This document shows positions 56,020 through 57,617 of a stretch of 64,000 bases of DNA, piece after piece. Origin of the DNA: Candidatus Latescibacterota bacterium. GTDB taxonomy: Bacteria > Krumholzibacteriota > Krumholzibacteriia > WVZY01. The stretch is taken from contig CP070677.1 of assembly GCA_020352495.1 (NCBI GenBank), positions 1,975,418-2,039,417 on the forward strand, given 5' to 3'. The first letter of the stretch is position 1; each line of letters begins with the position of its first letter. Both the position numbers and the translations under genes were made by a program. The notes under the pieces were generated by a model that worked only from the letters and a program-made list of their open reading frames with translations, was not told the DNA's origin and did no database searches.

Positions 56020-56955
56020 ATGACTACTATTACAAGCGATGATTACGAGGACTTTCTTCGACCGACCGAACGTCTTGATCGCGATCTCATAAAGGCGTTA
56101 AAGGCCGGAGGAGACGAGATCGGACTCGAGACCGCGCGATGCCTCGTTGCGATGTATTACAACGTTCAAGAGCAACGCAAGCAATCCGGCAATCGCATCA
56201 GCGCGGCTCTCCGCCATGGGGGCGATCCCGGTGGACTTGTCAAATGGTTTCACAAGCAAAACGAAGTTTTCGAGGCGCAAATTTCGCGCGCAATCAAAGC
56301 GATTTCCAATCAAAGCGAGATCTCCCAATGGGCAGCCGAAGTTGTCGGCATGGGGGAGGTCCTCGCGGTCGGGCTTTGGGCCTACATCGACATGGATATC
56401 GCGACGACGGTCTCGAAGATTTGGCGCTTCGCCGGCCTCGATCCGACATGCAAATGGGAGAAGGGACAAAAGCGGCCGTTTAATCCCGATCTCAAGGTGC
56501 TCTGTTGGAAAATCTCCGATTCTTTCGTCAAGGTCTCGAATCGCCTCGATTCGTATTACGGTCGGATTTATCGCGAGCGTAAGGAGTTCGAAATCCTCCG
56601 AGACGGGGACGGATACAACAAGCCGGCGGCGAAAGAGAACCTCGCCTGGCGCAAGAAGAAAAATAAGAAGACCTCGGCGGAATGGAGGGCGATCCTCGAG
56701 TCGGGGCGGCTCCCGGCGTTGATCCTCGATCTCCGCGCGCGGCGCTACGCTTCCAAGCGCTTCCTTTCTCATTATTGGGAAGTCGCTTACGAGCTTCATC
56801 ATCGCAAGAAAGCTCCTCGGCCTTACGTCGAGGTTCATCTCGGGCATACCGATATCGTCTCGGCGGCGGAGGTCAAGGAATACGAACGAGTAAACGCCGA
56901 CGCGGAGAAGCAACGACAGAAGATGCTTAAGAAAGAGAAAGGCGGCGAGGAATGA
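56020..56955 (+). CDS. Hypothetical protein
   Basis: RBS CCGAAAGGAGCC. The ORF is 311 aa. Confidence 0.5.
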   Translation: MTTITSDDYEDFLRPTERLDRDLIKALKAGGDEIGLETARCLVAMYYNVQEQRKQSGNRISAALRHGGDPGGLVKWFHKQNEVFEAQISRAIKAISNQSEISQWAAEVVGMGEVLAVGLWAYIDMDIATTVSKIWRFAGLDPTCKWEKGQKRPFNPDLKVLCWKISDSFVKVSNRLDSYYGRIYRERKEFEILRDGDGYNKPAAKENLAWRKKKNKKTSAEWRAILESGRLPALILDLRARRYASKRFLSHYWEVAYELHHRKKAPRPYVEVHLGHTDIVSAAEVKEYERVNADAEKQRQKMLKKEKGGEE

Positions 56956-57617
56956 GGGAACGCTTAGTAACGATCGAGGCTGCGTCTTTGGTCCAAGATA
57001 TGGATTACTATCCGAGGACGGATATCGATACGACGCGGATCGGATATCTCGTCGAATCCATTGCCGCCGGCGTCAACCTTCCGCCGGTCATCGCCGATGA
57101 GAAAACGAAGATCGTCGTCGACGGTTATCATCGAATTCGCGCAGCTATGCGCTTCGAGGGCGAGGGCGCGAAGATTAAGGTTATTCTCCGAAGCTATCCT
57201 AACAAGAAGGAGCTTTTTCTTGATGTCGCGCGCCTCAACTCGTCTCACGGGTTGATGCTCAATCGAGCGGATCGCGTCCGTTGCTCGCTGATAGCGAAGC
57301 GCCTCGGGATCCCCGACGGCGAGATCGCGAAGGCGCTCAACATGCGGCGAGAAAGTTTTCTCGATCTCGTAAAGACGCGGACTGCGAAACATGCGAGGAC
57401 CCGAGCTCCGGTTGTCCTCAAATCGACGGTAAAGCATTACGCCGGAAAGGCGTTGAGCGCAAAACAGGTCGCGATCAATGACAAGCTCGGCGGGATGCGG
57501 GCAACGTTTTACGTCAACCAGGTTATCCTCTTGATCGAAGGAGATTTTATCGACATGGGGAACGAAGAACTTCTGGAGAGGCTTAAAGTCCTAAAAGGGC
57601 TCTTGCGAAAATTTTAG
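56952..57617 (+). CDS. ParB/Srx-like N-terminal-domain protein
   Basis: ATGA overlap. 'IVVDGYHRIRAAM' matches the ParB/sulfiredoxin DGxHR signature. 'LIAKRLGIPDGEIAKAL' is HTH-like. Confidence 0.6.
   Translation: MRERLVTIEAASLVQDMDYYPRTDIDTTRIGYLVESIAAGVNLPPVIADEKTKIVVDGYHRIRAAMRFEGEGAKIKVILRSYPNKKELFLDVARLNSSHGLMLNRADRVRCSLIAKRLGIPDGEIAKALNMRRESFLDLVKTRTAKHARTRAPVVLKSTVKHYAGKALSAKQVAINDKLGGMRATFYVNQVILLIEGDFIDMGNEELLERLKVLKGLLRKF

Follow-up and report, generated by a model that had tools for sequence, protein, structure and literature searches.

A 221-amino-acid (aa) protein encoded in a phage-derived region of Candidatus Latescibacterota, in a 64-kb stretch of contig CP070677.1 that we call the window, is very probably a TasParB, the ParB-like partner of TasA. 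Its open reading frame (ORF) follows directly on that of a 311-aa protein identified here as TasA, and it precedes a long dual-repeat array with the organisation of a TIGR guide-RNA array (Table 1). This identity follows from the score of the upstream protein against NF052498.1, the restriction of its structural alignment to the Nop domain, the 10+8+10+8 arrangement of the array, the ATGA coupling of the two genes and the correspondence between the motif DGYHR of the 221-aa protein and the DGFHR published for TasParB. The locus is a new instance of the already published TasA-TasParB association. The same protein family also adjoins a second, unrelated RNA-guided DNA binder, Vipr. For the explanation as a whole, in which the protein is the TasParB of a nuclease-free TIGR-TasA system in a tailed Latescibacterota prophage and acts downstream of RNA-guided binding, we give a probability of roughly one half.

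An earlier note on this DNA had described the 221-aa ORF as a stand-alone ParB-like protein, translationally coupled to an unknown upstream protein and placed beside a repeat array that might be its DNA target. The ORF and its VVDGYHRIRAA signature (residues 55-65) were confirmed, and its ATG indeed overlaps the TGA of the 311-aa ORF as ATGA. The upstream protein is no longer an unknown: it matches the NCBIfam model NF052498.1, "TIGR-Tas system RNA-guided endonuclease", with 158.7 bits (E=2e-46, cutoff 100). Its residues 43-282 align with residues 118-318 of TaTasR (9MTY), which is the Nop domain only, and it aligns with TasH structures over their Nop part only. Since the alignment covers the Nop domain without an N-terminal RuvC or HNH, the protein is, by these comparisons, TasA, a predicted nuclease-free, Nop-domain RNA-guided DNA binder. 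Only about 42 residues precede the TasR-aligned region, which leaves no room for RuvC or HNH, and the protein has no nuclease match in Pfam. Residues Y269 and H276 align with the tigRNA-processing dyad Y289/H296 of SpTasH. In complex with a tigRNA, TasA represses transcription and uses two short spacers, one for each strand, to bind double-stranded DNA; a 2026 preprint describes TasA as an RNA-guided transcriptional repressor and makes no mention of ParB.

About 30 nucleotides (nt) past the stop codon of the 221-aa ORF, a region of about 2 kb with a 36-nt period begins. Each unit consists of an edge repeat of 10 nt (GARCGAGYCR), a spacer A of 8 nt, a loop repeat of 10 nt (GAGAAANCCG) and a spacer B of 8 nt, and in the information-content profile conserved blocks of 10 nt accordingly alternate with variable blocks of 8 nt, two of each. 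The array comprises about 53 units, 33 of them exactly 36 nt long, and 50 edge repeats have at most one mismatch. Both repeats begin with GA and finish with CC(R), and the loop is A-rich; because these features fit the published tigRNA logic, they place the probable RNA sense of the array on the + strand. From this architecture the array is predicted to be the dual-repeat guide-RNA (TIGR) array of TasA, and not a parS site, centromere or iteron set. The 54-unit array of the earlier note is therefore present as a long array of 36-nt units, but as a guide-RNA array and not as the DNA target of a ParB. TIGR arrays most commonly have 5-15 units (Faure et al., Science 2025, PMC12045711), and the TIGRFinder preprint lists 4,126 dual-repeat arrays with 65,635 tigRNAs, or about 16 per array on average; the array in the window is unusually long against both.

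The array is irregular in three stretches (58333-58420, 58672-58840 and 59186-59332), where units have degenerated or fused and where a perfect tandem repeat of 13 nt (CGAAGTCGATGAA, 3.7 copies at 58697-58744) disrupts the 36-nt register. These stretches may be scars of recombination or slippage inside the array. ORFs of 72-204 aa run across it on both strands (57662-59632; e.g. 59018-59632 on the - strand and 59160-59615 on the + strand) and are by-products of the repeats, not genes. A candidate second TIGR array at 7065-7503 (GTACGAGCCA, 36-nt spacing) was rejected: it is a coding repeat inside an ORF of 1503 aa (6361-10872), where it encodes a Ser/Thr/Gln-rich 12-aa repeat (STSQSTSQSTTR). 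The GTACGAGCCA in its unit is one mismatch from the TIGR edge repeat, a likeness that looks coincidental.

In their description of TIGR systems, Faure et al. (PMC12045711; fig. S14 and methods) note that tasA is "occasionally operonized" with a gene resembling parB, which they named tasParB, in loci whose dual-repeat arrays have 10-nt repeats and lie upstream of, downstream of or between the genes. The same authors report a conserved DGFHR motif in TasParB, which they compare with the DGQHR of DndB, and predict a C-terminal dimerisation; in the literature that we searched, the name tasParB is used nowhere else. The locus in the window resembles theirs in its operon with tasA, its 10-nt edge and loop repeats, its DG[F/Y]HR motif, its ParB-like fold and a protein length of about 220 aa, and differs in its setting in a Latescibacterota prophage, its array of about 53 units and the Y for F in the motif.

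Among related loci (numbered L001 onwards), the adjacency of TasA and the ParB-like protein recurs in L003/L103, L107, L111 and L172. The order is TasA-ParB-array in the window and in L003, which has an additional upstream array, array-ParB-TasA-array in L172, ParB-array-TasA in L111 and array-ParB in L107. The edge-repeat core GCGAGCC is common to the window, L003, L107, L111 and L172. Since the adjacency is kept in five independent loci despite the rearranged order of genes and arrays, it supports a functional link between TasA and TasParB. The tie of the 221-aa protein to its locus, as the earlier note had it, thus stands as a functional link, but not in the form of the array as its cognate DNA target. 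The loop repeats vary among these loci (GAGAAANCCG, GTAAGAACCA, GAAGACACA, GAGACAACCA and GACAAACGCA), and an Rfam scan of five related loci returned nothing relevant. Other arrangements around tasA were also seen: in L092, L095 and L096 a distant ParB-like ORF (E=1e-13) lies 600 nt upstream of tasA in the opposite orientation, and in L085, where a ParB-like gene is absent, a Vipr-like ORF (E=2.5e-11) precedes tasA by 850 nt.

The fold of the 221-aa protein is clearly of the ParB/KorB/Noc/sulfiredoxin type. Foldseek comparison with ParB, Noc and KorB gave E-values of 1e-6 to 1e-5 over 200-235 columns and recovered the architecture of an N-terminal domain followed by a helix-turn-helix (HTH), so that the HTH-like segment seen in the earlier note proved sound, and the phage ParB-like profile phrog_1033 matches the protein at 3.3e-9. 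By sequence profiles its place in the ParBc family is less straightforward: it scores below threshold with Pfam ParB_N (15 bits against a gathering score of 26.3) and with TIGR00180 (14.3 bits against 58.45), which formally speaks against membership, whereas the fold speaks for it. The CTP motif GERRxRA, for which the earlier note had suggested a check, is absent, with DGYHRIRA in its place. In the profile alignment, box II of Spo0J (GERRFRAA) corresponds to DG[F/Y]HRxxAA in the family, and box III (ENxxR) is replaced by NxxHG (NSSHG in the window protein).

An exhaustive profile search found a large family, with 8,509 representatives at E<=1e-3, of which 857 reach E<=1e-30; almost all have a length of about 220 aa. 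Among 157 representatives, the residues D16, Y20-P21-R22, G40, P44, D57-G58-x-H60-R61, N96, H99-G100 and D107 are at least 90% conserved, as are L129, K157, G165, Q172, G181, Q190 and L214; within DGYHR (residues 57-61), D57, G58, H60 and R61 reach at least 96%. Three positions of the ParB nucleotide pocket are filled by the family-invariant residues YPR, DGxHR and NxxHG, and a ligand pocket in these proteins is, from this pattern, likely to be under selection. Thus, like the CTP-dependent clamps ParB, Noc and KorB (6SDK, 7BNR and 8QA9), the protein joins an N-terminal ParB/sulfiredoxin (Srx) domain to an HTH DNA-binding domain, keeps conserved residues at the three nucleotide-pocket motifs and has a C-terminal helical region predicted by others to dimerise. 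Unlike them, it has DG[F/Y]HRxxA for GERRxRA and NxxHG for ENxxR, it stays below the Pfam and TIGRFAM thresholds, and it has neither a ParA partner nor a palindromic parS. A tblastn search of 50,697 records with the window protein and a relative from L005 found no relatives in cultured phage.

Most members of the family that we found keep different company. In the related loci GGNNN pentamers (variants AGCNN and GTCNN) run alongside the ParB-like gene on its own strand, and a conserved protein of about 190 aa, phrog_4652, that has no Pfam hit is encoded next to it. Among 80 metagenome loci encoding the family, this protein, a Cas7-like RAMP, adjoins in 59 and pentamer runs in 69, with TasA in three and a TIGR array alone in one more; in the subset of 19 loci whose two flanks each extend at least 1.2 kb, the RAMP is present in 17, TasA in one and neither in one. 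A search seeded from the partner protein recovered the same module (L100 and L101). This module is a VIPR system, which a recent preprint (bioRxiv 10.64898/2026.04.26.720920) describes as a RAMP protein, Vipr, with vrRNAs made of GGY/NN repeats, which use a 1-nt-skip code to recognise double-stranded DNA, and with accessory genes ("vap"), of which one raised protection; the system is said there to act through transcriptional repression in inter-phage conflict. The relatives beside Vipr are 37-47% identical to the window protein and hold the position of a vap gene, and both host systems are nuclease-free RNA-guided binders of double-stranded DNA in phages. The window itself, unlike a VIPR locus, has no Vipr-like ORF, no GGY/NN array and no (GGNNN) run of seven or more. 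TasA is absent from all 15 viral loci in which a member of the ParB-like family was identified. In the searchable text of the two system papers, the sharing of one ParB-like family by TasA and Vipr is not remarked upon.

A single alignment column, 155, separates the TasA-linked from the Vipr-linked ParB-like proteins, and no such column lies in the HTH. A neighbour-joining tree of 82 ParB-like proteins is star-like, and the number of partner switches cannot be read from it. Weak matches to the Vipr-like protein occur in Ounavirinae phages, where GGYNN runs border the matching gene. In some Vipr/ParB-like loci the pentamers of the arrays are fixed at other positions: AGCNN or GCNNN in L010 and L011, GTCNN over more than 400 nt in L016, and others in L015 and L019. 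The AGCNN, GCNNN and GTCNN arrays agree with the VIPR preprint (bioRxiv 10.64898/2026.04.26.720920), which speaks of "related consensus" vrRNAs. As with the ORFs across the TIGR array of the window, the 82-85-aa "genes" called within the GGY/NN arrays of L100 and L101 look spurious. Three loci (L014, L018 and L169) encode full-length members with no TasA, Vipr-like protein or periodic array within about 5 kb; in L018 a 35-nt sequence (CCCCGCAATTCCTAGAACTAGTGTTTGGAATTGTGGG) is present upstream of the gene in two direct copies, each internally near-palindromic.

How might one protein family serve two such systems? Since members 37-47% identical to the window protein adjoin two unrelated nuclease-free RNA-guided DNA binders, the step that the systems share, and at which TasParB would act, is probably the bound target DNA. 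The arrays themselves are poor candidates for a specific substrate, as DNA or as RNA, because TIGR and GGY/NN arrays share neither sequence nor architecture. In addition, the putative recognition helix has no residues common to the five TasA-linked proteins despite their shared edge repeat; together with the different array type beside the relatives, this argues against array DNA as a sequence-specific target. TasParB is also unlikely to be needed for tigRNA processing, because TasA retains its own Y/H dyad. We propose that the array is no centromere for TasParB, and that the protein would act after RNA-guided binding, at DNA sites picked by the TasA-tigRNA complex. There it may work as a nucleotide-binding, C-terminally dimerising, HTH-bearing switch of the ParB type that holds or bridges DNA, a proposal that derives from the ParB/KorB-like two-domain architecture and the conserved pocket. 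Holding the DNA could make the silencing of target genes, or of a competing mobile element, stronger or more extensive. As a mechanism, this downstream, non-cleaving, DNA-holding effector stands for us at a little below even chances. A broader version is more speculative and, as it stands, doubtful: that the DG[F/Y]HR family is a portable effector recruited independently by TasA and by Vipr, a nucleotide-gated clamp or bridge loaded at RNA-specified sites and not at parS. If true, it would turn point binding into extended silencing or into the capture of a rival element's DNA, an "RNA-programmed ParB".

Several points weigh against our interpretation. Faure et al. (PMC12045711) give the contact between TasA and TasParB as predicted and weak. 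Among the 80 closest viral TasA loci, none has a true member of the family within 5 kb, and TasParB would therefore be dispensable for the core function of TIGR-TasA. The benefit reported for a vap cannot be transferred directly to the ParB-like family, because the VIPR preprint (bioRxiv 10.64898/2026.04.26.720920), in its available text, names no vap a ParB and the vap1 tested there, of the SUSP1 (Ounavirinae) type, is unrelated; neither ParB nor TIGR is mentioned in that text. The possibility that SUSP1-type vap1 is a cryptic relative was rejected on hhalign probabilities of 0.6% and 0.1% for the 146- and 147-aa neighbours in phages tootiki and DSL-LC04, the judgement resting on the 146-aa protein of a related Felixounavirus locus (0.6%). 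The canonical CTP motif GERRxRA is unconserved, which makes a ParB-like clamp cycle no more than putative, and an enzyme would account for the numerous invariant D, H and N residues no less well than a switch would. Finally, there is no spacer target within the window. With 39 clean spacer pairs, both two-strand geometries and gaps of 0-2, no match with at most one mismatch was found outside the array, and the 20 matches with two mismatches carry no signal when compared with 15.6 +/- 4.2 for re-paired spacers and 19 for the same-strand geometry. In collections as large as the public ones, chance alone would be expected to yield matches to 16 nt.

The invariant residues lead to what we regard as the main rival, that TasParB is an enzymatic effector, a nuclease or an enzyme related to phosphotransfer or modification (of the Srx, DndB or ParB-nuclease type), acting on the DNA targeted by TasA or Vipr. 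The protein shares with DndB/DGQHR, DUF262 (DGQQR) and sulfiredoxin (GCHR) the superfamily fold and a phosphate-binding G-x-H/Q-R motif at the beta3-alpha2 junction, and its GxHR is close to that of Srx and DndB. The position of the ParB Glu, the Srx Cys and the DndB Gln is, however, hydrophobic (F in 116 of 157 sequences), so that an aromatic residue, Y59 in the window protein, stands at the catalytic or polar position and replaces the catalytic Cys of GCHR. Neither Pfam, NCBIfam nor PADLOC returned a nuclease family for the protein, DndB/DGQHR models are absent from its NCBIfam matches at E<=0.1, and no dnd, ssp or HNH partner gene was identified among the window ORFs scanned. VIPR types with DNA-binding vaps are, moreover, reported to repress (bioRxiv 10.64898/2026.04.26.720920). 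We consider an enzymatic role unlikely.

The array could instead be the site of action after all: TasParB would bind its DNA, or the DNA beside it, and control the transcription, stability or expansion of the array, as a regulator or maintenance factor specific to the locus. The gene always adjoins arrays, often on both sides and in both TIGR and VIPR contexts, and the HTH-like domain would suit such a role. DndB-type relatives are operon regulators. Yet the 36-nt dual repeats and the 5-nt GGY/NN repeats share no sequence while the proteins beside them are 40-47% identical, the five TasA-linked proteins have no HTH residues in common although they share the edge repeat, and all 80 of the close viral TasA loci keep their arrays without TasParB. 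This makes a dedicated array regulator quite unlikely.

It is very unlikely that the adjacency is circumstantial, with a conserved phage gene (e.g. for packaging or late regulation) sitting in a hotspot for the insertion of guide-RNA modules. The gene does lie between protease and capsid genes in L001 and upstream of TerL in L100, and three of the loci described above have neither partner in reach, but the overlap of its start codon with the stop codon of tasA, the neighbours kept through the shuffling of gene order and the single well-flanked locus in 19 with neither RAMP nor TasA all speak against this. The segregation of an extrachromosomal prophage by an orphan ParB, with the array as centromere, which the earlier note had raised and which a ParB-like fold with an HTH beside a long repeat array might suggest, can hardly be entertained, given direct TIGR units tied to TasA where ParABS has a palindromic parS, the lack of ParA and of GERRxRA, scores below both the Pfam and TIGRFAM ParB thresholds and a position on a 4.3-Mb contig that is consistent with integration.

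As RNA-guided DNA binders, TIGR-TasA and VIPR are compact and need no PAM; both are under development as tools, and their accessory genes are the least understood part of them. One ParB-like family serving both systems narrows the candidate functions to the shared step, the bound target DNA, and the VIPR link makes the question of TasParB function more tractable. For annotation, this means that TasA and Vipr should be looked for around any seemingly lone phage ParB that adjoins a repeat array, before a partition locus is assigned.

The features of the locus are collected in Table 1. The window as a whole is a tailed-phage region which encodes a minor head protein, a tape-measure protein, a Prim-Pol and SNF2 and UvrD helicases. 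Identical proteins are recorded from a Candidatus Latescibacterota metagenome-assembled genome, where the 221-aa protein is named "ParB N-terminal domain-containing protein" and TasA "hypothetical protein". A six-frame scan of the whole window for the deviant Walker A motif of ParA found none, in agreement with the earlier view that the ParB-like protein has no ParA partner, and the sole clean P-loop was that of the UvrD-type helicase. No promoter or terminator signal rose above shuffled expectation in a scan of 53-60.5 kb, and PADLOC returned no match to a defence family. In the structural region of the prophage, an ORF of 2940 aa (23787-32609) contains several internal periodic DNA repeats (28335-31503), ACGACGG and CAATCGA runs among them.

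Table 1. Features of the TasA-TasParB locus, in window coordinates.
Feature	Position	Strand	Basis
tasA, predicted Nop-domain TIGR-associated protein without nuclease domain, 311 aa	56020..56955	+	NF052498.1, TasR alignment
tasParB (very probable), ParB/Srx-fold accessory protein, 221 aa, with DGYHR, HTH-like middle domain and helical C-terminus	56952..57617	+	
Dual-repeat array, predicted TIGR, about 53 units of 36 nt	57618..59620 (units between 57647 and 59620)	+ (probable sense)	Periodicity and information-content profile

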